UHGV virus genome: UHGV-0323647
Reading direction: 5' to 3' (one strand)
From: a virus
DNA length: 21,157 nucleotides
How positions within the stretch are numbered: position 1 is the stretch's first letter; every line of letters starts with the position of its first letter. The notes beneath the pieces are model-generated. The model saw only the letters and a list, made by a program, of their open reading frames with translations. It had not been told where the DNA came from and made no database searches. The position numbers and the translations under genes are program-made. This document shows, one piece after another, positions 1,262 to 21,157 of the stretch.

Positions 1262-1684
1262 ATGGCGACTGAACCAAAAGCTGGTCGCCCCTCTGATTAT
1301 ATGCCGGAGGTGGCTGACGATATCTGCTCGTTGCTTTCTTCTGGCGAAAGTTTGCTGAAAGTATGTAAGCGTCCTGGTATGCCGGATAAGTCCACTGTTT
1401 TCCGCTGGTTGGCAAAGCATGAGGATTTTCGCGACAAGTACGCGAAGGCAACTGAGGCACGAGCTGATTCTATTTTCGAAGAGATATTCGAAATTGCTGA
1501 CACTGCGATTCCAGATGCTGCTGAGGTGGCAAAGGCAAGACTTCGCGTTGATACCCGCAAATGGGCGCTGGCCCGAATGAATCCCCGTAAGTATGGCGAC
1601 AAGGTAACTAACGAGCTTGTCGGTAAGGACGGCGGCGCAATTCAGATTGAAACATCACCGATGAGCACTCTATTCGGAAAATGA
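1262..1684 (+). CDS. terS: terminase small subunit (Sf6 gp1-like TerS)
   Basis: Product MATEPKAGRPSDYMPEVADDICSLL... matches my recollection of the Sf6-type small terminase (about 140 aa). Two in-frame ATGs at 1256 and 1262; I chose 1262. Stop overlaps the terL start (ATGA at 1681-1684). Confidence 0.85.
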   Translation: MATEPKAGRPSDYMPEVADDICSLLSSGESLLKVCKRPGMPDKSTVFRWLAKHEDFRDKYAKATEARADSIFEEIFEIADTAIPDAAEVAKARLRVDTRKWALARMNPRKYGDKVTNELVGKDGGAIQIETSPMSTLFGK

Positions 1685-3096: not shown

Positions 3097-3097
3097 T

Positions 3098-5296: not shown

Positions 5297-5386
5297 TTAA
5301 CCCATAACGTGCAATGGCTGTCTTTATGAGGCCTGGCACCCTATTGCCTTCCGATGGGCTGAACATCGAGTAAACAGGGGTAACAA

Positions 5387-6280: not shown

Positions 6281-6298
6281 CCTATCGGAGCATTAAGC

Positions 6299-7552
6299 AT
6301 GGCTAACCAATTAGCAAAAGACCTTGAAATCATGTTCGAAAACTACGTTGAAGGCTTTGAGGCCGCCTGCGTAGTTTCCCGTAACGCTAAAAAATTCCGT
6401 CCCGGTGATACTGCAATGCAGCGAGCAGGTGATGTTCTGTATCGTCCGCAGCATTACCACATGAACATTGAAGAAGGCCTCGATCTCAGCAGCAAAACAC
6501 CAACAGCACTGGTTCAGCGCCTTGTTCCTTCTGTGTTCAAGGAGCCGAAAAACATTCTGTACACTCTGGATGCGCGTGAAATGCGTGACCCTGAACATAA
6601 AACTGAAGCTGGTCGCGCCGCAGGTATGCGCCTTGCTGCACAGATTGACTCTGACCTGATTTCCATGGTTACGCAGCGTGCTACTAACGTGATCACGATG
6701 GCTGACTCAACCACAGGTTCACAGGGCCGTGATTTGTGGAACTGTGCGGCAGGTATTGATGCCACTATGACGGCGATTGGTGTACCGCAGGGTATCAACC
6801 GTCGCTCTTTCTGGAACCCCTTCAACTACAAAGACCTTGCTGGCGAGCTTGGTCACCGTGCCTATGCTCAGGGTGCAACCCTGACAGCATACGAAAAAGC
6901 GCAAATCCCTCCGGTTGCGTCCTTCGATAGCTACAAGACCGATATTTCTGGTCGTGTTCCGAAGGGTACAGCAACTTCCATTGCGCTGGCAGCAGCACCT
7001 GCGCACAAGGTTGAAGCGAAAGATGCTAACGATATGCCAGTGGATAACCGACAGGGGACCATTACGGTATCTGCTGAAGGTTTGCAGGTTGGTGATGCGT
7101 TCACCATCGCAGGGGTGAATTCCGTACACCAGATCACCAAAGATACCACCGGGCAGCCGCAGGTATTCCGCGTTCTGGCAGTAAGCGGAACGACAGTAAC
7201 TATCTCCCCGAAAATTCTGCCGCCTGACAACGCGGATGTCGCCAGCCGACCATATGCAAACGTTGATGCTAACGCGGCAAATAGCGCAGCAATCACCATT
7301 CTCAACAAGAACGCAGCACCTGCTAACCTGTTCTGGGCTGATGGTTCTGTTGAGCTGATGTACGGCAAACTGGCGTTCCCGACTGGTCAGGGTCCACAGG
7401 TAATGACAGCAACCACCGAGCAGGGCGCTACGCTGATCATGTCTTACGCCTTCGACCACATCAAAGGCGTAACCACTGCTCGTTTCACCACTCTGTATGG
7501 TTGCTCTGTACTTGTTCCTGAATATACGGGCATCGTTATTGCCGGGCAGTAA
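6299..7552 (+). CDS. major capsid (coat) protein (P22 gp5-like, HK97 fold)
   Basis: 417 aa ORF with GGAG 10 nt upstream of ATG 6299. Position after scaffold and size close to P22/Sf6 coat (about 420-430 aa). Followed by an intrinsic terminator. Confidence 0.9.
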   Translation: MANQLAKDLEIMFENYVEGFEAACVVSRNAKKFRPGDTAMQRAGDVLYRPQHYHMNIEEGLDLSSKTPTALVQRLVPSVFKEPKNILYTLDAREMRDPEHKTEAGRAAGMRLAAQIDSDLISMVTQRATNVITMADSTTGSQGRDLWNCAAGIDATMTAIGVPQGINRRSFWNPFNYKDLAGELGHRAYAQGATLTAYEKAQIPPVASFDSYKTDISGRVPKGTATSIALAAAPAHKVEAKDANDMPVDNRQGTITVSAEGLQVGDAFTIAGVNSVHQITKDTTGQPQVFRVLAVSGTTVTISPKILPPDNADVASRPYANVDANAANSAAITILNKNAAPANLFWADGSVELMYGKLAFPTGQGPQVMTATTEQGATLIMSYAFDHIKGVTTARFTTLYGCSVLVPEYTGIVIAGQ

Positions 7553-7557
7553 TTTTG

Positions 7558-7582
7558 GTGGGGCTTCGGCCCCATTTTTATT
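7558..7582 (+). terminator. rho-independent terminator/attenuator just after the coat gene
   Basis: GGGGC-TTCG-GCCCC hairpin (7560-7573) followed by ATTTTTATT, 8 nt after the coat stop codon. Confidence 0.6.
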
Positions 7583-7593
7583 GGGAGAAGACA

Positions 7594-7782
7594 ATGGCAC
7601 GAACAATGCTCTATAAGCCTGGCAACATGATCACCTGTGGTCAGTTTGCTGTCGATTACATCATTGTTGATGACGAAGAAGTTAAATCTCACCTGAAAAA
7701 AGGTTGGGTAAAAACTCCTGAAGAAACCGCAACGAAGCAAAAAGTGGCTAAGGCGGAAGAAGATGGCGAAAACGAAGGGTGA
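7594..7782 (+). CDS. small hypothetical virion-module protein (62 aa)
   Basis: ATG at 7594 preceded by GGGAGAAG. The ORF-track start at 7555 (no ATG there; first in-frame ATG is 7594) lies inside the terminator hairpin and is unlikely. Acidic C-terminus. Overlaps the next gene by 20 nt. Confidence 0.5.
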   Translation: MARTMLYKPGNMITCGQFAVDYIIVDDEEVKSHLKKGWVKTPEETATKQKVAKAEEDGENEG

Positions 7783-8224
7783 TCTCGTTCTAAAGGCTTT
7801 ACGAAAAGCCGGGCTGTATTCCAATGCCACGTTGACAGATGCTGACCCTCAGGCAATTGAAGATGCTATTAATGACCTCGAAGACATGATGGCAGCATGG
7901 CAGGCGAAAGGTATCGAGCTTGGGTATCAGTTTGCTGATACAGAAAACGGCATCATGCCGTTACCTGACGATGATTCAGGTATCCCTGCATGGGCAAATG
8001 ATGGCGTCGCTTTGAAACTCGCTGTGCAAGTGTGCATGGATAACGTCATTCAGCCATCAGACGCTCTCCTTACCGCTGCTGACAGTGCATATCAAACAAT
8101 CTGTATCGCTTTAACCAAAATACCACCACTTGAGCGGCGAAATGACATGCCTCGCGGTAGTGGTAACAAAAGCGCGTTTACGTGGAATCGGTTTTACATC
8201 GAGAAAGATGATCCGAGTACGTGA
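7763..8224 (+). CDS. head-completion / tail-adaptor protein (P22 gp4-like)
   Basis: 153 aa. N-terminus AKTKGDLVLKALRKAG...TLTD...DLEDMMAAW and C-terminal ...MPRGSGN... resemble P22 gp4 as I recall it. Correct position after coat. Confidence 0.85.
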   Translation: MAKTKGDLVLKALRKAGLYSNATLTDADPQAIEDAINDLEDMMAAWQAKGIELGYQFADTENGIMPLPDDDSGIPAWANDGVALKLAVQVCMDNVIQPSDALLTAADSAYQTICIALTKIPPLERRNDMPRGSGNKSAFTWNRFYIEKDDPST

Positions 8225-8233
8225 GGTGAATAA

Positions 8234-9652
8234 ATGCCGATTCAGCAACTTCCGCTTATGAAAGGCGTCGGCAAAGACTTTCGAAACGCCGACTATATCG
8301 ACTATCTGCCAGTGAATATGTTGGCTACACCAAAAGAAATCCTTAACAGCAGCGGATATCTTCGCTCATTCCCGGGCATTGCCAAACGTTCTGATGTGAA
8401 CGGCGTATCGCGCGGCGTCGAGTACAACATGGCGCAGAGTGCTGTTTATCGCGTGTGTGGTGGGAAGCTCTACAAAGGCGAAAGTGAAGTCGGTGATGTT
8501 GCCGGAAGTGGTCGCGTATCAATGGCGCATGGTCGGACATCTCAGGCTGTAGGCGTTAATGGTCAACTGGTCGAGTATCGCTATGATGGCACGGTTAAAA
8601 CCGTCTCAAACTGGCCTACTGATAGCGGATTCACTCAGTATGAGTTAGGTTCAGTCCGCGACATTACACGCTTACGTGGGCGTTATGCGTGGTCAAAAGA
8701 CGGCACGGATTCATGGTTTATCACTGACCTTGAAGACGAATCGCATCCTGACCGTTACAGCGCACAATATCGCGCAGAATCGCAGCCGGACGGTATCCTC
8801 GGCATCGGAACATGGCGAGACTTCATCGTCTGCTTTGGTTCATCGACGATTGAATATTTTTCCCTGACTGGGGCAACCACCGTTGGTGCCGCTTTGTATG
8901 TCGCACAGCCATCTCTTATGGTGCAGAAAGGCATTGCCGGAACTTACTGCAAAACGCCGTTTGCTGATTCCTATGCGTTTATCAGCAATCCGGCAACAGG
9001 TGCTCCGTCTGTATACATCATCGGCTCCGGTCAGGTATCACCAATCGCCAGCGCGAGCATTGAGAAAATTCTCCGCTCCTACACTGCTGATGAACTGGCT
9101 GATGGCGTGATGGAATCGCTGCGATTTGATGCGCATGAGCTGCTGATTATCCATCTTCCGCGCCATGTTCTCGTGTACGACGCATCTTCAAGCGCCAATG
9201 GTCCGCAATGGTGTGTACTGAAAACAGGCTTGTATGACGATGTGTACCGCGCTATCGACTTCATTTACGAAGGAAATCAGATAACGTGCGGCGATAAGCT
9301 GGAATCGGTGACCGGGAAATTGCAGTTCGATATCAGCAGTCAGTACGACAAGCAGCAGGAACACCTGCTGTTTACTCCGTTGTTCAAAGCGGATAACGCC
9401 AGAGTGTTTGACCTTGAAGTTGAATCTTCAACTGGCGTTGCGCAGTACGCTGACCGCCTGTTCCTCTCTGCAACCACTGACGGCATCAATTACGGTCGTG
9501 AGCAGATGATTGAGCATAATGAACCGTTCGTTTACGACAAACGCGTTTTGTGGAAGCGTGTCGGGCGAATCAGGAAAAATGTTGGCTTCAAATTGCGCGT
9601 TATCACGAAGTCACCTGTCACTCTGTCTGGCTGTCAGATAAGGATTGAGTAA
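8234..9652 (+). CDS. head-completion / tail-hub protein (P22 gp10-like)
   Basis: 472 aa, the same length as P22 gp10. N-terminus [35 protein letters not shown] matches my recollection of gp10. GAGGTG upstream of the ATG. Confidence 0.9.
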
Positions 9653-10500
9653 TGGCGGATTCGAATCTCAATGTGCCGGTAATCATCCAAGCTACGCGGC
9701 TCGATACATCAGTTCTTCCACGCAATATCTTCTCGCAGTCATATCTGCTGTACGTTATCGCACAGGGTACTGATGTTGGTAACGTGGCGAACAAGGCCAA
9801 CGAGGCCGGACAGGGCGCTTATGATGCACAAGCCAGGAACGATGAGCAGGATGTGATTCTGGTCGATCACGAAATTCGACTGGCATCGGCTGAAGCGAAG
9901 ATTCAGGACCACGAAACAAGGATCACTAACGCAGAAGCGGCGATAGTCGGCCTTGATTCACGATTAACGACAGCAGAAAACGATATTGATTACCTGACTG
10001 ATGAAGTTGTCGCCATTCAAAACACGCTTTCCGACCATGAAACGCGCATCGATGCTCTGGAGTATGCCACTACTCGCAAGAAGTCAGAGGTTGTTTACTC
10101 TGGTGTATCTGTAACCATCCCGACAACGCCGACCAACCTTGTTAGCCTGCTGAAAACGCTCACGCCGTCATCCGGCTCGTTGACACCATTCTTCGACACC
10201 GTTAACAACAAGATGGTTGTGTTCAACGAGAACAAAACGCTGTTCTTCAAGCTGTCTATTGTCGGGGCGTGGCCCAGCGGAACCGCCAACAGGTCAATGC
10301 AGCTAACCTTTTCCGGCTCTGTTCCTGACACGTTGGTCAGCAGTCGTAATGCGGCGACAACAACCGACAACATCCTGTTAGCTACGTTCTTCAGCGTGGA
10401 TAAAGACGGCTTTCTTGCCACAAATGGCAGTACGTTAACCATTCAGTCGAATGGTGCGGCTTTTACTGCCACAACCATCAAGATAATCGCGGAGCAGTGA
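9652..10500 (+). CDS. tail needle / cell-envelope-penetrating protein (P22 gp26-like, with C-terminal knob as in Sf6-type needles)
   Basis: 282 aa. N-terminus [43 protein letters not shown] matches the gp26 hub-binding tip. Heptad-like coiled coil with repeated DHETRI. Start overlaps the gp10 stop (TAATG). Confidence 0.85.
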
Positions 10501-10955
10501 TGATTCAGTTCAAACCAACGCGAAACATCGACCTGATAGAAGCCGTGGGAAATCACCCAGACATTATCGCCGGGAGCAACAACGGTGATGGATACGACTA
10601 CAAACCTGATTGCCGTTACTTTGAGGTGAACGTGCACGGGCAGTTCGGCGGCATTGTTTACTATCAGGAGATTCAGCCGCTGACATTCGATTGCCACGCC
10701 ATGTACCTGCCAGAGATTCGCGGCTTCAGCAAGGAAATCGGGCTGGCGTTCTGGAGATACATTCTGACTAACACCACCGTTCAGTGCGTCACATCGTTCG
10801 CTGCACGCAAATTCCGCCACGGGCAGATTTACTGCGCAATGATTGGCCTTAAGCGTGTAGGAACCATCAAGAAATACTTCAAAGGCGTGGATGACGTGAC
10901 GTTTTACAGCGCCACACGCGAAGAACTAATCGACTTCCTGAATCACGGGAGATAG
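10500..10955 (+). CDS. gp14-like virion/ejection-associated protein
   Basis: ATG at 10500 overlapping the gp26 stop (TGATG), with GGAG 5 nt upstream. The ORF-track start at 10497 is a GTG. Position corresponds to P22 gene 14. Confidence 0.75.
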   Translation: MIQFKPTRNIDLIEAVGNHPDIIAGSNNGDGYDYKPDCRYFEVNVHGQFGGIVYYQEIQPLTFDCHAMYLPEIRGFSKEIGLAFWRYILTNTTVQCVTSFAARKFRHGQIYCAMIGLKRVGTIKKYFKGVDDVTFYSATREELIDFLNHGR

Positions 10956-10957
10956 CC

Positions 10958-11650
10958 ATGTTATATGCATTTAAACTGGGCAGAAAACTGCGCGGTGAGG
11001 AACCTTATTGCCCTGAAAAAGGCGGGAAAGGTGGCAGTTCTGATAAAAGCGCAAAGTATGCAGCAGAAGCTCAGAAGTATGCCGCAGACCTGCAAAATCA
11101 GCAGTGGCAGACGATCATGAAAAACCTTGCTCCGTTCACGCCTCTTGCGGAGCAGTATGTTAACCAGCTTCAGAACCTTTCCAGTCTAGAAGGTCAGGGG
11201 CAGGCACTTAATCAGTATTACAACTCTCAGCAGTATAAAGACCTTGCAGGTCAGGCTCGTTACCAGAGTCTTGCTGCTGCGGAGGCGACGGGTGGACTTG
11301 GTTCGACAGCCACAAGCAATCAACTGGCTACGATCGCGCCGACACTAGGTCAGTCTTGGTTATCAAATCAGATGAGCAATTACAACAATCTGGCAAACGT
11401 TGGGCTTGGTGCGCTGCAAGGTCAGGCAAACGCCGGGCAGACGTACGCCAACAACATGAGCAGCATTGCACAGCAAAGCGCAGCTCTTGCCGCTGCTAAT
11501 GCCAATAAACCATCAAGTCTTCAGACTGCAATTAGCGGTGGCACGTCTGGTGCGATTGCCGGTGCAGGTCTTGCCAGCCTTTTGGGAACATCAACACCTT
11601 GGGGCGCTGGAATTGGTGCTGGTATCGGATTGCTTGGCTCGTTGTTTTAA
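10958..11650 (+). CDS. ejection (internal virion) protein, gp7-like
   Basis: 230 aa. N-terminus MLYAFKLGRKLRGEEPYCPEKGGKGGSSDKSAKYAAEAQKY and Gly/Ala-rich hydrophobic C-terminus (...GAGIGAGIGLLGSLF) match P22 gp7 as I recall it. Confidence 0.75.
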   Translation: MLYAFKLGRKLRGEEPYCPEKGGKGGSSDKSAKYAAEAQKYAADLQNQQWQTIMKNLAPFTPLAEQYVNQLQNLSSLEGQGQALNQYYNSQQYKDLAGQARYQSLAAAEATGGLGSTATSNQLATIAPTLGQSWLSNQMSNYNNLANVGLGALQGQANAGQTYANNMSSIAQQSAALAAANANKPSSLQTAISGGTSGAIAGAGLASLLGTSTPWGAGIGAGIGLLGSLF

Positions 11651-11659
11651 GGGGTAATC

Positions 11660-12967
11660 ATGGCTACTTGGCAAGGAACAAACGGCGGATTGTTGGCTGG
11701 TATCGGCGGCGTCAACTCAAACGCTCCGAGCGTAAATGACATCGGCAATACGCTTCAGCTTATCAGGCAGAACAATGATATTGAGCGTTCAGGCGCTAAC
11801 AATGTTGGGCTGACTGCTTTGCAAGGTCTTCAGCAGGAAAAGCAGGCTCAGCGGCAGAAAGAATTTCAGCAGGCGTACGCTAATGCTTATGCGTCTGGTG
11901 ATCGCGGTGCTTTGCGTCAGTTGGCTACTCAATATCCAGACCAGATTGAATCCGTTCGTAAAGGCATGGGATTCATTGATGAAGATCAGCGTAATTCTAT
12001 CGGCACCTTAGCGGCTGGCGCACGCCTTGCGTCATCGTCTCCAGAAGCAATGCAATCATGGCTGCAAAACAACGCCAAGGAACTGACTCGCGTCGGTGTT
12101 GACCCTAATAACGTTGCTCAGATGTATCAGCAGAATCCTTCAGGATTTGGTGAGTTTGTTGATCACCTTGGAATGGCTGCGCTTGGTCCGATTGATTACT
12201 TCAATGTTCAGGATAAGATGGCAGATCGCCAGCTGACCATGCGCGGTCAGGATCTGAACTCGCAAACCGCCGCCCGGAATCAGGCAATCACAATGCGTGG
12301 GCAAGATATCCAGGCAAATTTAGGTCAGCAGCGCATTAATCTGGACGCAGAAACAAACCGCATTAACTACGAAAATAAGCGCCTTGACCGGATGCTATCA
12401 GCAGAAACTAACGACCTGAAGCGCCAGGAAATACAGAGCCGCATAGCAGCCAACAACCAGAAGTTGCAGCAGAAGCAGCAAGAGCTAAATGATGGCTACA
12501 AAGACGGCATCAACACTCTCACAACCAGCATGTTCACTCTGAACGATATCGTTAATTCTCCTGCACTTAAGAGCATTACAGGCTTACGTGGAGCAATCCC
12601 CAACGTTCCAGGCTCACAAGCTGCAGACACTCAGGCGCGACTTGATACCTTTAAATCCCAAGCATACCTGACAGCGGTTCAGGCCATGAAAGGACTTGGT
12701 GCACTTTCTGATGCCGAGGGCAAAAAGCTCGACCAGGCTGTTGGTTCGCTGCAGAACTCGCAGAGCGAGGAGTCCTTTCGTCGCAACGCTGGCGTCATCC
12801 TGAACACGCTCAACCAGAAGCGTAATGAGGCGGTTGGTAAGTACGTTCAGCAAAACGGTATCAAGCGAGTGGAAGCGCCTCAGGCTTCTATAGATTACCT
12901 GAAGCAGCACCCCGAGCTGTCAATCGACTTCATTAATCGCTACGGATATCTTCCATCTTTGGGGTAG
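11660..12967 (+). CDS. ejection (internal virion) protein, gp20-like
   Basis: 435 aa, Gln/Asn-rich low-complexity helical protein, second of three consecutive ejection-protein genes. GGGG upstream of the ATG. Confidence 0.7.
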   Translation: MATWQGTNGGLLAGIGGVNSNAPSVNDIGNTLQLIRQNNDIERSGANNVGLTALQGLQQEKQAQRQKEFQQAYANAYASGDRGALRQLATQYPDQIESVRKGMGFIDEDQRNSIGTLAAGARLASSSPEAMQSWLQNNAKELTRVGVDPNNVAQMYQQNPSGFGEFVDHLGMAALGPIDYFNVQDKMADRQLTMRGQDLNSQTAARNQAITMRGQDIQANLGQQRINLDAETNRINYENKRLDRMLSAETNDLKRQEIQSRIAANNQKLQQKQQELNDGYKDGINTLTTSMFTLNDIVNSPALKSITGLRGAIPNVPGSQAADTQARLDTFKSQAYLTAVQAMKGLGALSDAEGKKLDQAVGSLQNSQSEESFRRNAGVILNTLNQKRNEAVGKYVQQNGIKRVEAPQASIDYLKQHPELSIDFINRYGYLPSLG

Positions 12968-12970
12968 TAA

Positions 12971-15601
12971 ATGGCTAATTACCGTGATTTGTTAGAGCAG
13001 GCTGGCGCACGTTACGGTGTGCCAGAAGGGTTGATGACTGCACTGGGTGCCAAGGAGTCTTCTTACAACCCTGCAGCAGTAAGCTCCTCCGGGGCTGTAG
13101 GATTGACTCAGGTCATGCCTGGGACATGGCGTGATATGGGTTATACCGATGAGCAAATGCAAAACCCCGAATATCAGGCTGACGCTGGCGCGCGCTATCT
13201 GGCAAAGATGTACCAGCAGTTTGGTAACTGGCGTGACGCTCTTCAGGCTTATCACGACGGTCCCGGCAACGTTATGAAGGCAAAGCGTGGTGAATATACG
13301 CCAGGACCTGAAGGCCGCGGTTACGTTGATGATCGCTTTGCTCAATGGGCGGGTGACCCGGTGACAGACTCAACAGTCGAACAGCGCGCCACCTCTGCAA
13401 AGGTACATCCTCAGCAAGACCCTAACAACCCGTTTGCACAACTGGAAGTACAGTCATCCGAACAAGTATCGGCATCAGGTGTGCAGTCAGACCCAAATAA
13501 TCCATTTGCTCAGATTGAGCAGCAGGCAGCCAGTCAGCAGCCACCTCAACCCGTAAGTTCTGTCGCACCGAAACCTGTTCAGCAACAAACAGTTAATCAG
13601 GCCAATAATGAACCAGCACGTGAAGAACCATCATTGATGCAACAAGCTGGCGATTGGCTCACAGGTGGTCAAAGTGCAGGGCAAATTGCAGAGCAGGCTG
13701 GTCGTGGTCTGGTAAACATACCATTTGACGTATTGCAGGGTGGCGCAAGTCTGATTAATGCAATCAGCCAGGGGCTTGGTGGCCCCAAGGTTTTGGATGA
13801 TGTTTATCGTCCAGTAGATCGACCGACAGACCCCTACGCGCAAGCCGGTGAAACAATTGGCGGGTATCTCCTGCCAATTGGTACAGCGGCAAAAGCTGCT
13901 GGAGCGCCAGCAAAGCTCGCTGGAGATATCGGTTCCGCAGGAAACATGATTGCAGGTTCTCTTGCTGATGCTGCAAATCAGGAGGGCGACTTTGCACAAA
14001 ATGCTGCCATTAACGGTGGTATCAATATTGGTGCTCAAGGCGTTCTTTCAGGTGTCGGGCGCGTTATTGCGCCAAGGGTTTCACATGCTCTTGGTGGTGC
14101 AGCACTGAATTCTGCTAATGATGTTTCCAGGATGGCAAAGTCAGGTGCTGGGCGTCAGTCAATTGCCAGTCAGGCCGCTAATGTGTCCGAAGGTGTAGCA
14201 AAAGCGGCTGAGTCTGCTGGAATTGATATAAACGCATTAACACCAGGAATGCGATCTGGAAGTCGTGGAATTGCACAAGCCGAAGGCGCATTGGCATCAA
14301 CACCAGGAATTGTTCAGGACGCCCATCAGACAGCATTTAACGAAATATCATCAAAGTTAAGTCGAAACCTTGATGAATTTGGGGCCGCATCTGGAACGGC
14401 ATCAGAAAAAAGTGCGGCTATAAAACAAAGGATTCTTCAAAATCTTGATCAGATGAAGGATGCCGAGCGCGCGGCATGGGATGACGTGCGGTCAACAATG
14501 CCAAATCAAAAAGCAAGAATGCTAAATGGTAATGCCGTTATTCAGGCAGAGCGATCTGCTGGCATACCGCTTACTCCTGAAATGAAACAGTTTGTTCAGG
14601 CAAACAATCAAGGTGGAGTAACATTTGATGGCATGAAAGCATGGAGAGCGAAATTTGCTGATGCGGAGCAAAAATATAAGCGTAGCGGAGAGGCAAATGC
14701 GGCAAGGAGAGCAGGGGAAATACGCCGGGCAATTACTGATGATATGCGCACAATGGCGGAAAACGGCGGATTTCTTGATGACTGGCAGAAAGCTAATGAT
14801 CTGTCTAAAGCGAGGTTATCAGCACAAGAGAGTGCAGAGTCTGTTTTCGGGCGTGATTTGGCAACAGATGCACTGATTACGAATGGAGTAAAATCCCTTC
14901 AATCATCGTCAGCTAAAGGTCTTAATGGTCCTGCTGGGTTCCATTCTATGATCCGCGCGCTGCCAGAATCAGAGCGTGTTCCTGCTATATCATCAATGTT
15001 GCAAGATGCTATCTCGCATGGTGTACGTGGTGGCAAAGCTGATGCAGCAGGAATTAACCATATCGCAGGGATACTTACCCCACAAAATGTAAAAGCCATT
15101 AGCAGATATTCCTCAGATCTCGGAAGAATTGCTGATGCATATGGCACTCTTGCAAGAGCAGCAGTGAAACCTCAGCAGTATATTGAAAGAACAGGGAGAA
15201 CTGCCAATGTACTACGCGATCTGGATGCTGGTTTATCCAACGTCACATCAACAGTGTTAAATGCAATTGCCAACTCAACATCAGGTGCCATTGTTGGTGG
15301 AGCAGGAGGGGGCATTGCAGGCGCTGCCGCAGGTGCTTTAGTTGGCGCCGGGTTAAAAGGTGCTGTATCTAAAATTGCCACCACACGTAGTGGTCGGTAT
15401 GCGATAGAGAAAGCAGTTCAGGAAGCAACTAAAGCAGTAAGAGCAGGCGGAAGTAAAGAAGCATTAGCGGCGGCGGAACGCAGATTTATGGCAAATAAAG
15501 CTGCCGTAAAAGCGATACGTGATACAGTCGGAAACGAAGAGTTCAATCGCTTAGCGAGGGCTGGCATTGTAGCGTCGCTAAGCGGAATAGCACAGGAGTA
15601 A
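12971..15601 (+). CDS. ejection (internal virion) protein, gp16-position, with N-terminal lytic-transglycosylase (SLT)-like domain
   Basis: 876 aa. The N-terminal roughly 110 aa carry SLT-family motifs (GAKESSYNP with candidate catalytic Glu, [18 protein letters not shown]). The remainder is Ala/Gly/Gln-rich with a hydrophobic Gly-rich segment ([22 protein letters not shown]). Confidence 0.8.
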
Positions 15602-15925
15602 TTAATCATCCATGGATGGATTGAGCTTATCTCGTGTTGATGTGGCGATTTGTCCTACATTTCTAAGCCAAGATTTCAAATCCTTGATATTGTCATTGAT
15701 TTCATGAATATCTTCTTTTTTTAATCTTTTAACATTATTTTCAATAATTTCAATGGATTGCTCAATATCAGATATAGTGAATGATAGTTTGTTCTTCTCA
15801 TCTTTTATTGAGTTTTTAAGTGCTTCGTTCTCAGTCTTGAGGTCAGATATCTTTTGTTTTAAAGATGCCAGTTGGTACTGAACCACAATGAGTGCGATAG
15901 CTATCACGATAACTGTTGTATACAC
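15602..15925 (-). CDS. small membrane-anchored coiled-coil protein (107 aa), unknown function; candidate exclusion/abortive-infection factor
   Basis: GTG start at 15925 preceded on the - strand by AAGGAGG (complement of 15931-15937) with a 5-nt spacer. N-terminal hydrophobic helix YTTVIVIAIALIVVQY, then a K/E-rich helical region. AT-rich. Stop codon directly abuts the gp16-like stop (convergent, zero spacer). Confidence 0.65.
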   Translation of the reverse strand: MYTTVIVIAIALIVVQYQLASLKQKISDLKTENEALKNSIKDEKNKLSFTISDIEQSIEIIENNVKRLKKEDIHEINDNIKDLKSWLRNVGQIATSTRDKLNPSMDD

Positions 15926-16216
15926 ACCAACCTCCTTAGTTTTGTGCAGGATACCAGATGATAATGTATTGGTGGAGTGGTGTGTGAAAACGTGTCAACG
16001 ACAAACCATCCACAACTTGGACGAATGATTTAGCAAAAAGTGCTATTTTTGGTGTTTAGTGTCATAGAAAAGTGAATAGCTCACTTTTCAACATTGCATG
16101 AAACTTGCAGGAAATGTGACATTACCTTATAGGTAACTTCGGCGAAAATGCAGTAAATGTGAAACGTAATGATTTAAACGTGTCGAGAAAGTGGTTGTAA
16201 GTTAGCCTCTGAAGGA

Positions 16217-16245
16217 TTGATGACAGCTTTGTTATGGTATTAAAT
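16217..16245 (+). promoter_or_regulatory. candidate sigma70 promoter for the Panacea-like operon (TTGATG, 15 bp spacer, extended -10 TGgTATTAA)
   Basis: TTGATG at 16217-16222 and TG-n-TATTAA at 16235-16243, in a 368-bp AT-rich divergent intergenic region. Identified by eye only; a perfect TTGACA at 16251-16256 lacks a good -10. Confidence 0.3.
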
Positions 16246-16299
16246 GCAACTTGACACAGTTGTATACATAGCTGCGGCTATCAAGATGGAGGTATGTTT

Positions 16300-16743
16300 A
16301 TGCTCACTTGTTTTGATGTCGCCGACTACTTCTTGGCGCATTGCGATGAAGAAAGTGGCGACATTATCTCTAACCTAAAAATTCAGAAGTTGACGTATTA
16401 TGCCCAAGGGTTTTCTCTGGTTCTTCTGGGTAAGCCGCTATTTAATGAGAAAATTGAAGCCTGGATGCATGGGCCAGTAGTTCCTGAATTGTATCGTAAA
16501 TATAGGGACTGTGGTAACGGAGCTTTACCTGCGCCAGAAAACTTTGACGCTAAAAAATTCAGTGAAGATGAAATTGAATTGCTGGATGAGGTGTATAAAG
16601 TTTATGGTCAGTTTTCTGCCTGGAAACTGCGCAATATGACTCACGAAGAGCAGCCATGGAAAGATGCTTACATTGAGGGTGCGGTTAGCCAAGAAATCAC
16701 ACTTGATTCTATGAAAGGTTTTTTCAAAACGTTAATTAACTGA
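16300..16743 (+). CDS. Panacea-domain (DUF4065, SocA/GepA-like) protein; putative antitoxin/immunity component
   Basis: Segment NLKIQKLTYYAQGFSLVLLGKPLFNEKIEAWMHGPVVPELYRKY matches the conserved core I associate with DUF4065/Panacea proteins. GGAGG at 16288-16292 sits 7 nt before ATG 16300; the ORF-track ATG 16294 is only 1 nt after the SD. Confidence 0.7.
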   Translation: MLTCFDVADYFLAHCDEESGDIISNLKIQKLTYYAQGFSLVLLGKPLFNEKIEAWMHGPVVPELYRKYRDCGNGALPAPENFDAKKFSEDEIELLDEVYKVYGQFSAWKLRNMTHEEQPWKDAYIEGAVSQEITLDSMKGFFKTLIN

Positions 16744-16748
16744 CGTGT

Positions 16749-17171
16749 ATGTCTAGAGTTAAGGGAAGAATAAAACAGAGGGATAAAGAGAGCTCTGCTA
16801 CTGTTGGCCTCTCTATCCATCACGAATCTCATGATGTAGACAAAAGTCCGCCTGTATTTTCTCTTAGATACCTACAAAAGGGGTATTGCCTAGATTGCTG
16901 CCAAAAGCATGAAAAGGCAGCATTTGCAGATAGGCTGTTCAGGTTAAGTCAGATGTCATGGGATGAGATACGAAAATCTGATAAACACGGGCTTGGGACG
17001 GAAAAAATTGCCAGAAACGCGATAAAGGCTCCGATTCCTAAGCATGTTACTCAAGATGTGGATTTCATTGCGTTCAGATTTTGCTCTAAGGCACCTATGG
17101 TTGGTTATAAGATAGGAGCCACTTTTTATGTCTTATGGCTCGACAGGGAGTTCAAGCTATACAAGCACTAA
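16749..17171 (+). CDS. hypothetical protein (140 aa) co-operonic with the Panacea-like gene; candidate toxin/effector partner
   Basis: ATG 5 nt after the upstream stop with no SD of its own, suggesting translational coupling. No recognised domain. Basic N-terminus, CLDCC cysteine cluster, C-terminal strand ...GATFYVLWLDREFKLYKH. Followed immediately by an intrinsic terminator. Confidence 0.6.
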   Translation: MSRVKGRIKQRDKESSATVGLSIHHESHDVDKSPPVFSLRYLQKGYCLDCCQKHEKAAFADRLFRLSQMSWDEIRKSDKHGLGTEKIARNAIKAPIPKHVTQDVDFIAFRFCSKAPMVGYKIGATFYVLWLDREFKLYKH

Positions 17172-17172
17172 T

Positions 17173-17198
17173 AAAACCCACCGTCAGGTGGGTTTTTT
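17173..17198. terminator. intrinsic terminator (potentially bidirectional) ending the Panacea-like operon
   Basis: AAAACCCACC-GTCA-GGTGGGTTTTTT: GC-rich 6-bp stem, tetraloop, T6 tract; A-tract on the 5' side gives a U-run on the other strand too. Confidence 0.75.
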
Positions 17199-17211
17199 AT
17201 AAGGAGCAATC

Positions 17212-17331
17212 ATGATTTACCCATCAAACAACCCACCAGTTTGCCTGATTGGATGCCAGCCTTGCAGTTTTTATGGAATTAATTATGCCATGCTCAAGAG
17301 CCTTGTTAGCATCCAAAATGGTCGAGTCTGA
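17212..17331 (+). CDS. questionable small ORF (39 aa) with strong RBS; may be the 5' part of a frameshifted/decayed gene
   Basis: AAGGAG at 17201-17206, 5-nt spacer, ATG 17212. Product [39 protein letters not shown]. Overlaps long open frames on both strands that lack credible starts. Confidence 0.25.
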
Positions 17332-17614
17332 TATCAGGGATGCCCACCTAATATGGGTTCCGATGTCGATATTGAACGTCTCAACGAAGCGATCAAGATC
17401 GTTATCGAGGCATTTCCCGTACTCTCTCAATCTGGCATGGTCGGCGGCTGGGGAGGCAAAGCCCCATAATAGAGGATGTAACAGGAATCTTGATAATGGG
17501 TTTGCGAAACGTTCTGAGCCAGACGGACCAACGAATCTTTCCGCATGGATGAGACTTAAGAATAAAGAATTACCTCCTTCAGTTCATAACTACTGACAGA
17601 TAACCAACGCAACG

Positions 17615-17639
17615 ACCCAGCTTCGGCTGGGTTTTTTTA
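17615..17639 (+). terminator. strong rho-independent terminator upstream of the tailspike gene
   Basis: ACCCAGC-TTCG-GCTGGGT stem-loop followed by TTTTTTT; same architecture as the 17173-17198 terminator. Confidence 0.8.
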
Positions 17640-17696
17640 TGCCCAAAATTCACCGTAGCCATGCTGCGGCGATTCCTTGTATCTGGAGCAAATTAA

Positions 17697-19475
17697 ATGA
17701 CAGATTCAATAAATGCCAATGTTGTAGTTAGCATGCCTTCGCAACTCTTCACTATGGCGCGTTCTTTTAAAGCCGTAGCCAATGGCAAAATTTATATCGG
17801 TCAGGTTGACACTGACCCGGTAAATCCAGAAAACCAGATTCAGGTTTATGTGGAGAGCGAAGACGGTTCTCACGTTCCTGTTTCTCAACCAATCATCATT
17901 AACGCTGCTGGTTACCCTGTATATAACAGACAGATTGCCAAGTTCGTAACTGTACAGAATCACTCCATGGCTGTGTATGATGCGTATGGTGCACAACAAT
18001 TCTATTATCCTGATCTACTGAAATATTCTCCAGACCAGTTAAGGGCTGAGCTTTCTGGCCCTGATGGCGCATCTCTGGTTGGTTATGGAGATGAAACTGT
18101 CAAAGATGCTCTTGACAATAATGCCCATAAAATAGACACATTGAGGAGTGACTTGGCTGCTGATGATGGCTTTCGCCACATAGGCAACTTTCTCAATTTA
18201 GAGGCGCTGAGGGATTCAATGCCATTAGTTGCTGGAGAAATTGTTTATGTAGCTTCAGCAGCAAGTGCTACAGCAACTGAAAAACATTATGGTGGTGGGT
18301 ATTTCCAGTCTTTCGACAATAGCACATCACAGATTGCCGATGATGGAGGGATTGTTATTGTTCCATCAACTGGAACGTTGGCGTGGCGTCGCATTAATTT
18401 CACGGCCTACGATATGCAGTTTTGGGGGGTTAAGCCTGATGGTGCGACGGATAACGCGGAAGCCATTACGAAGGCGACGCAGTATGCAAAAGATAATCAT
18501 GTTGAACTTGTATTCCCTGCTGGTAATGTAAAGTCCTCACAAGCATTTCCTTTTTACTCCAGAATGTCAGTAAGGGGAGCCGGCAGAGAAAGCTCATTTT
18601 TCAGTAAAACAACAAATAACAAGTTTACCATTACATCAGAGGTGGAAGTAGACGCGCTCATTGTATTCATTCCTGATGTTTATGACCCAAGTGGCGTAAC
18701 TATTGATACATTTTGCTTTAAACCAAAACTTGAGGGCATTACTTTCCAGAGAGATGATTTGACTTCAGATAACATGTGTTACTACAGCGTGTGGGCAGAA
18801 AAATTAGCTGCTCCAATCATGAGGGATTTAAATTTTATAGGGCATTATATCGGAATGTATGGTAAAAACTGGTTTTTATTTGAGGCAACATCTGTTCAGT
18901 TTTTAGGAGTGAACGGTAGAACTTTCCAAGGCATAAGTTGCTTAAATTTGAGTGGGCCAACATACTTCCTTTCAGGAACAAGCCTTAACTGGAATCTTGT
19001 AAGTGTTGTAAACGCACAAAATGCCTACGAAATTTCAGGGCAGCAGTATAGTCATCTTAATAACTGTACAGCAGAAGGAATTAAACCAATGCCAGGAGAG
19101 ACACTTGCCACTGCATTCCGTTTTAAGAATCCTACATCAATAACTTTAACCTCATGCGGAACTGAAAATGTTCAGGGAGAACAATTCAGGATAGAGATGG
19201 CGCCCACACCATCATTTAAAGGTTCGGTTGTAATCAATAACTTTCAAGTTGTGGATCAGGTCAATCCATCCACGCCAACTAAATTTTTTGTTATTGATTC
19301 TGCTAATGTTGGTACATTATCCGTATCATTAATTGGTGGTGAATTAACAAGAAACACTACGCTATCAAACCTACAACAACCAACCGTATCAGGCACAAAC
19401 TGTGTGTTAAATAATGTTGGGTGCTGGGTTGAGTCACCTTCTGTTTCTGGAGGCGCTGTCTACAAGACGCTTTAG
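17697..19475 (+). CDS. tailspike protein: P22-type head-binding N-domain fused to a divergent beta-helix-like receptor-binding/depolymerase body
   Basis: 592 aa. N-terminal roughly 110 aa ([59 protein letters not shown]...) match the P22 gp9 head-binding domain as I recall it. Downstream the sequence turns AT-rich and carries motifs typical of pectate-lyase-like tailspikes ([23 protein letters not shown]). Confidence 0.9.
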
Positions 19476-19476
19476 A

Positions 19477-19506
19477 ATGAGAGGCGGGTAGCCGCCTCAT
19501 TTTTTG
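19477..19506. terminator. bidirectional intrinsic terminator shared by convergent tailspike and acyltransferase genes
   Basis: AATGAGAGGCGG-GTA-GCCGCCTCATT hairpin followed by TTTTT on the + strand. The minus-strand acyltransferase stop codon lies inside the stem. Confidence 0.7.
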
Positions 19507-20636
19507 ATGAATCTGTACTCTACATACTTAAACGTGTATGCAGTGACAATTGTTGTAATAGATACAAGAGATAGTATAAGCGTCCAAAATCCAACGGCAG
19601 ATATATTATTTAAATTGAATATAAAGCCAATAAATTTTATAACCAATGCGTTAATTATTAGGTGAAGAAGATAAGAGCTATAACTAGCCTCGCCAAGATA
19701 GACAAGAGGTTTAAATGTGAAAACGGAAGGCTTTGTCATTACAATTACATTAAATAGGAGAGTGGTTATTAAAAACCTTTCCCATCCATATCCGCTAAAC
19801 ATCGTGTAAAGTAAGTAAATAATAGTTAATGCTGAAGCAGCGGAAAAGAAATTGTTTGTTATCTTATTGCTACTTAACATTACAGATACCATTTTCATCC
19901 TATTGAAAAGAATGGCAGACAAAGCTCCAGATATAAAATAAACCCAAACAACCTGCCCAGAATACAAGTCATTTGCTGCATATCCAACTGAGAGCACAGA
20001 ACCGATAACTGCAATTGATTTGAATCTAATAGCTGCACATATCACTGGAAGCATGCAATAGAATTTCCATTCATATGGAAGTGTCCATATCACCGCGTTT
20101 AATGAGTAAGTCCTGAATCCATTCACCCATATATCACTTCCGAAAAATCCAAAGCCAAATAGATTTATTGCCTGCCTTGCTGTTGTAGTTAAATCCTGAC
20201 CACCATGCGACCACATCAATGTAAGAACTAGAACTATAGTTGATGCTATCATGTACATAGGAACAAGGCGTTTAACTCGAGATACGAAAAACATCTCCCA
20301 GTTAATTTTATTGCCTGTTTTTATGATCTTATCAAAGAATAAAAAACCTGTTATACAAAAGAAAATTTGCACACCAACATCACCAGCATGAGCGAAAACC
20401 CAGAAGTTAGATGTGTTAACTGATAATGGATTAAATCCATTATTTGACAGAGAAAATACAGCATGGTTTAAAACAACAAGAAGAGCCGCTATACCTCGAA
20501 TGCCATCAATATGAAGATAACGCTTCCCTGAGAAATCAATATGATTGTAAAAGTTAAAGCATACAAAGACTCTGTTTATTCCCATTGATGCCGCAAGACA
20601 TAACAAGGCAATCCCAATATTAAATAAAGTTTCCAT
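19497..20636 (-). CDS. oac: integral-membrane Acyltransferase-3 family protein; likely O-antigen O-acetyltransferase (serotype-conversion gene)
   Basis: 379 aa, many hydrophobic segments. N-terminal signature RYLHIDGIRGIAALLVVLNHAVF typical of Acyltransferase-3 proteins. Strongly AT-rich. Located between tailspike and integrase, where Sf6 carries oac. The symbol is by analogy, not proven orthology. Confidence 0.8.
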   Translation of the reverse strand: METLFNIGIALLCLAASMGINRVFVCFNFYNHIDFSGKRYLHIDGIRGIAALLVVLNHAVFSLSNNGFNPLSVNTSNFWVFAHAGDVGVQIFFCITGFLFFDKIIKTGNKINWEMFFVSRVKRLVPMYMIASTIVLVLTLMWSHGGQDLTTTARQAINLFGFGFFGSDIWVNGFRTYSLNAVIWTLPYEWKFYCMLPVICAAIRFKSIAVIGSVLSVGYAANDLYSGQVVWVYFISGALSAILFNRMKMVSVMLSSNKITNNFFSAASALTIIYLLYTMFSGYGWERFLITTLLFNVIVMTKPSVFTFKPLVYLGEASYSSYLLHLIINALVIKFIGFIFNLNNISAVGFWTLILSLVSITTIVTAYTFKYVEYRFIKK

Positions 20637-20887
20637 CTAGATCTCACATAACAAGTTGTCGCACAAATGTTAGCACATAGGCGAGTCAATAATAATCAGA
20701 AGGTTACAATCACGGTGATCGTTTATCAACAAAACTACTTAAAATAAGTAATACGGTAAATGCTTATCTTCATATGGATGCGAACAAAAGAGCTTTTACC
20801 AACCAGTACTTACTAAGCATTGTCAGCAGTGGACTGCATTCAGTTTGATGGCAGTACGGTTTTGATGAGACAACGCTGAGACACACA

Positions 20888-20923
20888 AAGCCTTGCACTG
20901 GATTACAAGGCTTTGTGCTTTTC
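20888..20923. other. perfect 9-bp inverted repeat (AAAGCCTTG / CAAGGCTTT) with 10-nt loop, 19 bp beyond the integrase stop; terminator or attP-associated structure
   Basis: AAAGCCTTG-CACTGGATTA-CAAGGCTTT followed by GTGCTTTT on the + strand. Lies in the non-coding gap between oac and int. Confidence 0.35.
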
Positions 20924-20941
20924 GATAGTGGTTAAGGTGGA

Positions 20942-21157
20942 TCACTCCACCTTTTCATCAAGCCAGTCCGCCCACCACTGCATCATTTCTCTGCGCTTAT
21001 CGAGATACTGAGCATGGTTGTAAATCCCGCGCACAGATCCGCCGTTGGCATGTGCCAGTTGCACTTCAATAGCATCAGCGGGCCATTCGTGCTCGTTCAT
21101 AATCGTGCTGAATTCATGCCTGAATCCGTGACCGCTTTCCAGACCCTCATAGCCGAT
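20942..21157 (-). CDS. int: tyrosine integrase, C-terminal catalytic end (5' part beyond window)
   Basis: The reverse strand translates without stops to ...GHGFRHEFSTIMNEHEWPADAIEVQLAHANGGSVRGIYNHAQYLDKRREMMQWWADWLDEKVE*. This contains the tyrosine-recombinase box (HxxR ... catalytic Y in RGIYNH) and a P4-family-like WADWLD C-terminus. Not in the supplied ORF track because the start lies outside the window. Confidence 0.85.
   Translation of the reverse strand: MGYEGLESGHGFRHEFSTIMNEHEWPADAIEVQLAHANGGSVRGIYNHAQYLDKRREMMQWWADWLDEKVE

Follow-up and report, generated by a model that had tools for sequence, protein, structure and literature searches.

It is textbook knowledge that phages exchange their receptor-binding bodies while retaining the P22 head-binding domain in front of them (PMC2629481, PMC10408124). 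P22 gp9, Sf6 gp14, HK620 gp9, and the CUS-3 endosialidase tailspike share with the tailspike described here a beta-helix body architecture, and their genes likewise come last in the late operon. For Sf6, the acetyltransferase Oac has been reported to block the tailspike of the phage itself and to provide immunity against superinfection, and the Oac of phage phiV10 has been reported to act in serotype conversion via O-acetylation of the O-antigen (PMC9558356). The tailspikes of TL-2011b, PAS7, and Ro103C3lw are predicted to bind or cleave the O103 antigen (PMC10408124, PMC11522302), and conserved motifs flanking the receptor-binding domain (RBD) have been reported only in lytic genera, not in prophages of the Lederberg- and Uetakevirus type (PMC10408124).

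The stretch of DNA analyzed here, referred to as the window, is the 21,157-nucleotide virus genome UHGV-0323647. Its tailspike gene occupies positions 17697 to 19475 on the plus strand, and ORF analysis confirmed the earlier note in that this 592-amino-acid reading frame is a genuine gene. The assignment rests on the ORF itself, on a match to PF09008, on precomputed matches to PF09008 and PF27114 for the identical protein, and on late-gene synteny, which identifies the tailspike as the last late-operon gene of a P22-like (Sf101/CUS-3/HK620-type) prophage. In the ORF map, it lies distal to the ejection-protein genes (gp7, gp20, and gp16) of a P22-type late operon that is complete, with homologues of terminase, portal, coat, gp4/10/26, and gp7/20/16. 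An identical contig (L002) carries the Pfam labels P22_Tail-4, Phage_stabilise, Phage_tail_NK, P22_gp7, Inj_translocase, and Phage_P22_gp16, and the late region is 94 to 96% identical in DNA to Sf101-, CUS-3-, and Huey-type phages. Upstream of the tailspike, a consensus scan and reading of the sequence revealed a hairpin followed by a T-run, GACCCAGC-TTCG-GCTGGGTT (17614 to 17633, plus strand), whose form suggests a terminator, and a ribosome-binding site, GGAG, is located at ∼17686. The tailspike gene is followed by oac and then by an integrase fragment. No tRNA gene or attachment site was found within the window. The genes flanking a related locus, L010, suggest an argW-type site for the prophage end. 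A PADLOC search gave no match for Oac or for the Panacea-domain protein, and the 140-amino-acid neighbor was only weakly NsnC-like.

The first 115 residues (17697 to 18041, plus strand) form the head-binding domain that anchors the tailspike to the virion. PF09008 (Head_binding) matches residues 4 to 114 with an E value of 1.5e-61 and 206 bits against a cutoff of 24, and phmmer aligns residues 1 to 120 to the head-binding structure of Sf6 gp14 (E = 1e-59) as well as to those of P22 gp9 (2xc1, E = 4e-44; 1lkt, E = 6e-42). Foldseek recovers the N-terminal fragment of Sf6 gp14 at 82 to 83% identity. The earlier proposal that the N-terminal ∼110 codons encode a P22 gp9-type head-binding domain was therefore correct. 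At the DNA level, this part is 80 to 91% identical to HK620, CUS-3, Sf6, epsilon34, and others (86 to 89% over gene nucleotides 1 to 350 for HK620, CUS-3, and Sf6), and the similarity is confined to it. The domain is followed by a 65-residue neck (amino acids 116 to 180; 18042 to 18236, plus strand) that is absent from P22, Sf6, HK620, and CUS-3, carries an LVGYG..TVK..L motif, and is predicted with low confidence to contain short helices. In a sliding-identity comparison, the neck is 97 to 100% identical to that of the tailspikes P0009, P0040, and P0048 but only 40 to 50% identical to that of forms with other anchors; judged by these sequences, it is inherited together with the head-binding domain in the P22-like family members.

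The earlier note had placed a single junction at ∼18020 and had described the head-binding part as being of typical phage GC content and the remainder as AT rich. Compared with known P22-like phages, the position is roughly right, as DNA similarity to HK620, CUS-3, Sf6, and others ends at gene nucleotides 310 to 350 (window ∼18006 to 18046, amino acid ∼117), but there are several junctions and not one. DNA common to non-P22 backbones starts at a second junction, at ∼18237 (amino acid 181), with the blastn alignments to loci L008, L014, L011, and L013 all beginning between 18234 and 18240. At a third junction, at ∼18450 to 18600, the subtypes within the family diverge from each other, and divergence at the level expected for specificity begins only around amino acids 250 to 300. 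In addition, L004 and L008 show patchy DNA identity to the body of the window tailspike. The sequence of the cap (amino acids 181 to 300) is a likely recombination hot spot.

The compositional description, on the other hand, did not survive analysis. The GC content is 0.424 for 17697 to 18019 versus 0.414 for 18020 to 19475 (chi-square P = 0.79), and with 0.420 the head-binding domain is itself poorer in GC than the late genes at 1681 to 15601 (0.505; P = 0.002). The whole tailspike gene is GC poor (0.416 versus 0.505 for the late genes; P = 2e-12), its GC-richest segment comprises amino acids 116 to 250 (0.46), and the best internal change-point, near 18483 (0.449 to 0.390), is not significant (block-shuffle P of ∼0.12). 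Given that there is no step at 18020 and no significant change-point at 18483, we discarded base composition as evidence for mosaicism. The mosaicism is nevertheless real, as indicated by homology instead of composition. When full-length phmmer was run against the PDB, only residues 1 to 120 aligned to P22 and Sf6, and a search of the entire PDB with residues 121 to 592 (E ≤ 1) retrieved only 24qi and a marginal 4mxn, and no P22, Sf6, or HK620 body. These results bear out the fusion of a P22-type anchor to a body with no relation to its counterparts in P22, Sf6, and HK620. Given this lack of a body match, and DNA identity that ends at amino acid ∼117, it is a reasonable inference that the glycan specificity differs from that of these three phages.

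The body belongs to Pfam family PF27114 (Phage_tail_beta), as seen from the precomputed match on the identical protein (contigs L002 and L003) and on all close relatives. This family is small, with 28 clusters at 50% identity and E ≤ 1e-30 among 1.84 billion representatives; NCBIfam contains no model that matches the tailspike or Oac. In the AlphaFold2 monomer model, residues ∼200 to 592 have pLDDT values mostly above 90 and form all-beta repeats in a right-handed parallel beta-helix, and the top 50 Foldseek matches of this model are mostly beta-helix tailspikes and depolymerases, so that the beta-helix-like body suggested earlier holds as a prediction. Blastn edges and conservation delimit the N-terminal cap with the first beta-helix turns (amino acids 181 to 300; 18237 to 18596, plus strand), which is 63 to 100% identical over all family subtypes, has many invariant columns, and includes a weak, subthreshold Pfam match to the pectate lyase-like PF12708 (amino acids 244 to 308). 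The 19-residue motif that had been singled out as a hallmark of the body is indeed present at amino acids 242 to 260 (18420 to 18476), but it falls where conservation within the family is highest. The remainder of the helix (amino acids 301 to 592; 18597 to 19472, plus strand), presumed from the model, the Foldseek matches, and subtype divergence to be the specificity and catalytic part, is variable, with only ∼17 to 73% identity to subtypes P0009, P0038, and P0109 compared to 77 to 100% among relatives of the same subtype.

Conservation points to three candidate catalytic carboxylates on the plus strand, E460 (19074 to 19076), E468 (19098 to 19100), and E490 (19164 to 19166). The family alignment shows no variation at E468 and E490 and almost none at E460, and E460 and E490 align with PAS7 E347 and E377, which are predicted to be catalytic (PMC11522302); the acidic residues E177, E347, E377, and D407 of PAS7 are conserved in the window tailspike. 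That the beta-helix only binds glycan, or acts as an esterase, a lyase, or another non-glycosidase and not as a hydrolytic endoglycosidase, is very improbable in our judgment. Lyase-type tailspikes generally act on uronic acid polymers. The predicted fold is a pectate lyase-like beta-helix and not an SGNH esterase, the helix contains the invariant glutamates, and the family member PAS7 forms halos on O103 lawns (PMC11522302), all of which outweighs the facts that the catalytic residues of PF27114 are known as candidates only and that esterase-active tailspikes are described for other phages (PMC11654681).

This type of tailspike is not new. A cluster at 90% identity with 41 sequences contains the window tailspike and several WP_ entries from E. 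coli at NCBI, where the type is already present in draft genomes under a generic name. WP_244580825.1, WP_078269063.1, and WP_047089859.1, all labeled “phage head-binding domain-containing protein” and from E. coli/Escherichia prophages, are collinear with the window tailspike from end to end. Judged by the refuting condition set in the earlier note, the gene is likewise not unique, as it is collinear throughout (88.7% nucleotide identity) with P0002, an annotated Escherichia prophage tailspike whose cluster includes WP_249415907.1 from E. marmotae. P0002, the closest NCBI relative (locus L004), is 96 to 100% identical until ∼18600 and then only 73 to 86% identical, and it has gtrABC after the hairpin where the window has oac. 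P0001, in turn, is 98% identical over the body (amino acids 121 to 592) and is accompanied by oac and integrase as in the window. Only two contigs, one from an ENA metagenome and one from Logan, carry the exact 592-amino-acid sequence. Among complete RefSeq E. coli genomes, megablast matched only the 5′ 350 to 930 nucleotides of the gene, and sensitive blastn with 18600 to 20636 gave nothing beyond 10% coverage. Among the GTDB representative genomes, the body query found no Escherichia host and a single distant relative, in Dryocola clanedunensis (38%).

The nearest characterized full-length relatives are the O103-associated tailspikes of TL-2011b (Uetakevirus; 43% identity over 96% of the body), vB_EcoP_PAS7 (40% over 97%), and Ro103C3lw (34%), with alignments that span 78 to 97% of the body; they have the PF27114 fold and the conserved cap in common with the window tailspike. 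The published definition of the O103 subtype of receptor-binding proteins (RBPs) combines a sequence threshold for the receptor-binding domain (at least 30% identity and at least 60% coverage) with a host belonging to serogroup O103 (PMC10408124). With the values for TL-2011b and PAS7, the window tailspike lies above the sequence threshold, the host serogroup being a separate matter. We rejected filing the body under O103, since it passes the sequence rule alone and its specificity region (amino acids 300 to 592) is only 17 to 53% identical to those of the O103-associated tailspikes. Relatives at comparable distance are found in Cronobacter, Proteus, Hafnia, and Yersinia, which argues against a specificity common with the O103 type.

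Downstream of the tailspike, a 21-nucleotide convergent intergenic gap holds a hairpin detected by a terminator scan and RNA folding (19481 to 19498, plus strand; GAGGCGG-GTAG-CCGCCTC plus a T-run), with a folding energy of −17 kcal/mol and a z-score of −4.1. The stop codon of oac overlaps with the end of its stem and with the T-run, and the hairpin and its spacing are kept in L008, L010, L011, L013, and L014, with a modified form in L004. This hairpin is likely the terminator of the late operon. In L004, the 20 nucleotides after the hairpin resemble the 3′ end of oac and might be a remnant of it, although the similarity is too short to tell. The oac gene (19497 to 20636, minus strand) encodes a 379-amino-acid acyltransferase with an AT3 domain only: PF01757 (Acyl_transf_3) matches residues 43 to 366 (E = 9e-21) without a fused SGNH domain, and the protein matches the O-acetyltransferase family phrog_3333 (E = 7e-44). 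Of the motifs that define AT3 proteins, R/K-X10-H, RXXR, and VxxFFx(I/V/L)SG(F/W/Y) (PMC9558356), all are intact, as R47-X10-H58, R120VKR, and V89QIFFCITGF (with Thr replacing Ser). The AT3 domain and motifs are common to Sf6 Oac, Sf101 OacB, and phiV10 Oac, of which Sf101 OacB is only 30% identical to the window protein, and in Sf6 the gene lies between tailspike and integrase as it does here. We therefore regard Oac as a putative O-antigen O-acetyltransferase and its gene as a putative serotype-conversion gene.

This context bears on the nature of the polymer that the tailspike recognizes. The closest solved structures are those of Acinetobacter phage Belisarius gp86 (24qi; Foldseek E = 6e-17, TM score of 0.58; phmmer E = 5e-13 over amino acids 196 to 518 of the full-length window tailspike) and of Acinetobacter phage AS12 gp42 (6eu4; Foldseek E = 2e-14, TM score of 0.56), which differ from it in being capsule specific, in having another N-terminal anchor, and in sharing only 17 to 21% identity. 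This proximity to solved capsule depolymerases of Acinetobacter phages could suggest that the body targets capsule, colanic acid, or another exopolysaccharide, with the acyltransferase modifying that polymer; the PHROG matches of the N-terminal body, which include “EPS depolymerase” and “colanic acid degradation,” and a cap region common to Erwinia phage EPS depolymerases point in the same direction. We consider this improbable. The PHROG and Erwinia matches are limited to the conserved cap (amino acids ∼140 to 300), outside the specificity region, the closest characterized full-length relatives are the O103-associated tailspikes (PMC10408124, PMC11522302), and the order of tailspike, AT3 Oac, and integrase at the end of a P22-like prophage is the classical serotype-conversion layout, as in Sf6 (PMC9558356). 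The O-antigen hence remains the most probable substrate.

The tailspike body, hairpin, and oac together form a contiguous homologous block (18234 to 20552), recovered as single blastn high-scoring pairs (HSPs) with 77.7% identity to L008 and L014 (epsilon15-type anchor), 80.4% to L011 (Tail_spike_N anchor), where it reaches 20749, and 69% to L013 (Tail_spike_N anchor on a myovirus-like baseplate). The block is 2.3 to 2.5 kb long and is found on four N-terminal anchor types, namely, the P22 head-binding domain, the epsilon15-type N terminus, and two types of Tail_spike_N, of which one sits on the myovirus-like baseplate; on all four, the body is followed by the 21-nucleotide gap, the hairpin, and a convergent AT3 gene of 379 to 395 amino acids. 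With this body present behind four types of anchor, the horizontal acquisition claimed in the earlier note is supported at the family level, but a recent acquisition by this phage in particular is not. For the O103 subtype, a 2.5-kb block of body plus acyltransferase is 83 to 90% identical between P22-like and epsilon15-like forms; in TL-2011b, the AT3 gene adjoins the tailspike codirectionally with a 70-nucleotide gap, whereas that of the window is convergent with a 21-nucleotide gap.

It is possible, though we doubt it, that body and oac are neighbors by common descent without selected functional linkage, reflecting one ancestral arrangement in which anchors were swapped upstream. Such a history would fit the left boundary at 18234 to 18240, which is identical in all three foreign backbones as if only the anchor had been replaced, the presence of gtrABC instead of oac in L004, and the discordant identities of Oac and body. 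In L008, the body is 90% identical to that of the window but Oac only 62%, and therefore body and oac have not always moved together; instead of repeated cotransfer, their linkage could reflect an old synteny on which patchy recombination was later superimposed. Several subtypes of the PF27114 family are found without an adjacent acyltransferase. Against an explanation by descent alone, the O103 subtype has a different, oppositely oriented AT3 gene at a fixed gap, on both P22-like and epsilon15-like anchors, and further subtypes are accompanied by AT3 genes of other kinds, 0 to 96 nucleotides away. The occurrence of different AT3 genes beside several body subtypes suggests a recurrent or maintained association instead of a single accident. 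We tentatively propose, giving the idea slightly less than an even chance, that the unit of exchange in PF27114 is not the receptor-binding domain alone but a two-gene “recognize and mask” cassette of body, hairpin, and cognate AT3 gene, found behind at least four anchors and with the cap (amino acids ∼181 to 260) as a hot spot at its left edge.

Taken as a whole, our preferred explanation, in which we have considerable confidence, is that a P22-like temperate podovirus of Escherichia coli carries a P22-like anchor joined to a PF27114 beta-helix that most likely binds, and probably hydrolyzes, the O-antigen, with a linked Oac that most likely masks the receptor. The head-binding domain would dock the presumed trimer on the tail hub, with the neck joining it to the body (amino acids ∼181 to 592), which would bind a host surface polysaccharide, most likely the O-antigen. 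The body probably hydrolyzes this glycan via the conserved glutamates, with E460, E468, and E490 as candidates, and cleavage would let the virion descend to the outer membrane. In a lysogen, Oac most likely acetylates the glycan of the phage's own tailspike and blocks the latter, which would result in superinfection exclusion and serotype conversion. Anchor and neck derive from the P22-like lineage and the body from a small family that passes between virion anchors of at least four kinds, and close relatives have traded short patches within the body.

By itself, the mosaic tailspike matters little, because such exchange is well known and the tailspike type is already in NCBI; the gene is one more uncharacterized E. 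coli tailspike subtype, putatively specific for an O-antigen. Once the serogroup is known, it could be of practical use in serotyping, detection, and the retargeting of tailocins and phages. The block of body plus acetyltransferase, if confirmed, would mean that in silico O-typing of lysogens misses a modification. The two-gene cassette, if true, would extend the idea of conserved RBD-flanking motifs (PMC10408124) to temperate phages, and a phage that switches its receptor would simultaneously gain the matching superinfection exclusion. If confirmed across families, the block would explain how receptor specificity and masking stay matched during modular exchange in temperate phages.

The tailspike gene occupies positions 17697..19475 (+) and encodes 592 amino acids, as the earlier note had read it. 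Residues 4-114 match the Pfam model PF09008 (Head_binding; E=1.5e-61), and residues 1-120 align with head-binding domains of known structure, those of Sf6 gp14 (E=1e-59) and P22 gp9 (E about 1e-44), confirming a P22-type head-binding domain. PF12708 (pectate-lyase-like) gave a weak, sub-threshold match over the region of a 19-residue motif that starts at residue 242. An AlphaFold2 model, with an input alignment of 49 sequences (mean pLDDT 80; mostly >90 from residue ~200 to the C terminus), is made up of short repeated strands, and its best solved structural neighbors are beta-helix tailspike depolymerases, namely, gp86 of Acinetobacter phage Belisarius (24qi; E=6e-17, TM 0.58) and AS12 gp42 (6eu4). 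These results bear out the proposed beta-helix-like body carrying the motif.

The ORF and domains of the earlier observation thus stood, but its compositional part did not. It had described a head-binding domain of typical phage GC content, followed from about 18020 by an AT-rich body. The GC content is 0.424 for 17697-18019 versus 0.414 for 18020-19475 (p=0.79), and the head-binding domain (0.420) and the entire gene (0.416) both fall below the average of 0.505 for the late genes at 1681-15601 (gene versus late genes, p=2e-12). Residues 116-250 form the GC-richest segment of the gene (0.46), and the best single change-point, at ~18483 (0.449 to 0.390), was not significant in block shuffles (p about 0.12). 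We therefore rejected GC content as a sign of tailspike mosaicism. Low GC content (0.30-0.45) extends over the whole right end of the window, from about 15.6 to 20.8 kb, and takes in both the cargo genes and the acetyltransferase gene (0.345).

The tailspike is nevertheless mosaic by homology, with three nested junctions visible in sequence comparisons rather than a single one, and this mosaicism is not unique to the window phage. None of the sequenced phages in the collection remains similar in DNA beyond the first, about 18006-18046 (residues ~104-117); up to this point, the gene matches HK620 (88.6%), CUS-3, Sf6, epsilon34, and others. The second, at 18234-18240 (residue ~181), is the shared start of blastn alignments to three non-P22 backbones, which cover the remaining tailspike gene and continue into the downstream acyltransferase gene: one with an epsilon15-type N terminus (loci L008 and L014) and two with a Tail_spike_N anchor (L011, and L013, where baseplate genes adjoin it). 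The segment between these junctions is a predicted helical neck with an LVGYG..TVK..L motif, and it is 97-100% identical to the window in other P22-like family members versus 40-50% in forms with other anchors. At the third, about 18450-18600 (residues ~250-300), subtypes within the family diverge, falling from 87-100% identity to the window to 17-63% (e.g., proteins P0009, P0038, P0040, and P0048). The motif at residue 242 falls where the family is most conserved, outside its distinctive part. Even against the closest relatives, body DNA is patchy: identity to L004, the locus encoding the related tailspike P0002, is 96-100% up to about 18600 and 73-86% after, while identity to L008 is about 50% to 18300, 97-98% at 18500-18800, 74-88% at 18800-19200, and 94-97% at 19200-19400.

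The neighboring gene, oac (19497..20636, -), encodes a 379-residue AT3-only acyltransferase (PF01757, E=9e-21; phrog_3333 "O-acetyltransferase," E=7e-44) with the AT3 motifs R47-X10-H58, R120VKR, and V89QIFFCITGF, as defined in PMC9558356. This gene and that of the tailspike converge, and the 21-nt gap between them contains a GC-rich hairpin and then a T-run. The body, followed by the same gap, the conserved hairpin, and an AT3 gene encoding 379-395 residues, recurs behind four different anchors: the P22 head-binding domain (window and the P22-like relative L010), the epsilon15-type N terminus (L008 and L014), and Tail_spike_N of type a (L011 and L017) and type b (L013). The O103 subtype repeats the body-plus-AT3 pattern independently, with a codirectional AT3 gene 70 nt downstream of the tailspike in epsilon15-like (TL-2011b) and P22-like forms, where body and AT3 gene align as a single 2.5-kb HSP (83-90% identity). 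Among the remaining subtypes, some lack an adjacent AT3 gene, and others have different AT3 genes 0-96 nt away. Body-oac linkage is conserved, from which we infer that the two may have been transferred together as a unit and may be functionally matched. One caveat is that Oac identity to the window does not follow body identity (98.7% and 97.8%, respectively, in L010, 84.7% and 83.5% in L011, 63.3% and 76.6% in L013, and 61.6% and 90.0% in L008). The Oac of Sf6 was reported to block Sf6's own tailspike, and that of phiV10 has been reported in serotype conversion through O-antigen O-acetylation (PMC9558356). Another caveat is that in L004, gtrABC follows the hairpin in place of oac. This gtrA-gtrB-gtrC glucosylation operon (L004 11777-14593; Escherichia prophage, L004-L007) lies immediately past the conserved hairpin, after which about 20 nt still resemble the oac 3' end, suggesting that in the closest NCBI relative one serotype-conversion module was swapped for another at the hairpin. 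Downstream of its PF27114 tailspike, the myovirus-like L013 carries two back-to-back AT3 acyltransferase genes, 6855-8042 (-) and 8310-9422 (+).

Proteins identical or related to the body carry the precomputed Pfam label PF27114 (Phage_tail_beta). This family is small: HMMER, run exhaustively against 1.84 billion representatives clustered at 50% identity, gave 28 clusters at E<=1e-30. Its members come from Escherichia, Cronobacter, Proteus, Hafnia, Yersinia, Enterobacter, and Cedecea. The bodies of P22, Sf6, and HK620 showed no sequence similarity to the window body at E<=1. This supports the earlier interpretation of a specificity unlike that of these phages, though not the single GC-marked, phage-specific junction that came with it. 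A host serogroup has been reported for just three relatives: TL-2011b (43% identity), from an O103:H25 lysogen, PAS7 (40%), which infects O103 and forms halos, and Ro103C3lw (34%), also O103 (PMC10408124; PMC11522302). The acidic beta-helix residues that are invariant or nearly so are D319, E460, E468, E490, and D534; E298, E460, E490, and D520 align with E177, E347, E377, and D407 of PAS7, proposed as catalytic candidates (PMC11522302), and a catalytic role of the conserved residues is predicted here.

The sequence belongs to a P22-like prophage (Sf101/CUS-3/HK620 type), of which the window covers the late region and the right end. Its structural genes share 94-96% DNA identity with such phages and many E. 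coli prophages. The genes run in the order terminase, portal, scaffold, coat, gp4/10/26, gp7/20/16, small cargo region, tailspike, convergent AT3 acyltransferase, and integrase fragment. One public contig from ENA (ERZ27298378) and one from Logan (SRR6060197) match the window at 100% identity across 15001-20977 and 15573-20950, respectively. The two-gene cargo at 16294-17171 (+), at the position of the P22 immI region, is also carried by L002 and L003, contigs encoding an identical tailspike. It comprises a 149-residue SocA/Panacea-domain protein (PF13274, E=2e-24; NCBIfam SocA equivalog cut-off not reached) and, starting 5 nt later, a 140-residue protein (phrog_8366) weakly similar to the MAG6450 family and to the C-terminal part of NsnC; the two resemble a toxin-antitoxin or defense pair of the Panacea type. 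A 353-bp relic at 17170-17522 (L001 1629-1981, 3819-4000), which matches the 3' end of a ClpP-like protease gene (minus strand) in the APEC20/16 prophage at 98.6% identity, directly adjoins the sequence that immediately precedes the tailspike gene. Some 1.8 kb of APEC20/16, containing the remainder of clpP, a pair of Arc-family genes, the gene for a ClpX zinc finger, and an antirepressor gene, is absent here, suggesting that the immI-like region bears a deletion scar. The gp16-type ejection protein (12971-15601, +; 876 residues) has an N-terminal SLT lytic-transglycosylase domain (PF01464 and PF26808; NCBIfam transglycosylase matches over residues 3-103), which is present in the 797-residue L010 homolog and absent from the 665-residue L004 homolog; the GC3 of its gene, 0.353, is far below that of other late genes (about 0.52). 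AT content within the window peaks at 15600-15900 (GC 0.295), where a 107-residue coiled-coil-like ORF (15602-15925, -; phrog_5962, function unknown) that is conserved on L002 and L003 is located. At the right end, a 164-bp stretch (20862-21025), 90-94% conserved in L001 and L004, where it adjoins the prophage ends, overlaps the C-terminal coding part of an integrase ORF (20942-21100, -) running off the window. In L010, the integrase is complete (385 residues) and yfdC-like and mlaA genes come after it, an arrangement compatible with integration at an argW-type site; no tRNA genes were found within the window.

The 90%-identity cluster containing the window tailspike holds 41 sequences, several of them NCBI E. 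coli entries named "phage head-binding domain-containing protein." P0001 shares 98% identity over the body (residues 121-592) and the same oac and integrase context, and P0002, which occurs in Escherichia (E. marmotae among them), aligns collinearly from end to end (88.7% nucleotide identity). Neither the 3' body nor oac occurs in any of the 5,426 complete RefSeq E. coli genomes, indicating that this tailspike type is uncommon, and we found no experimental work on it in the literature. The window tailspike is therefore a new, uncharacterized example of a well-known kind, and the most interesting outcome is the conserved body-hairpin-acetyltransferase block that different virion types have in common.
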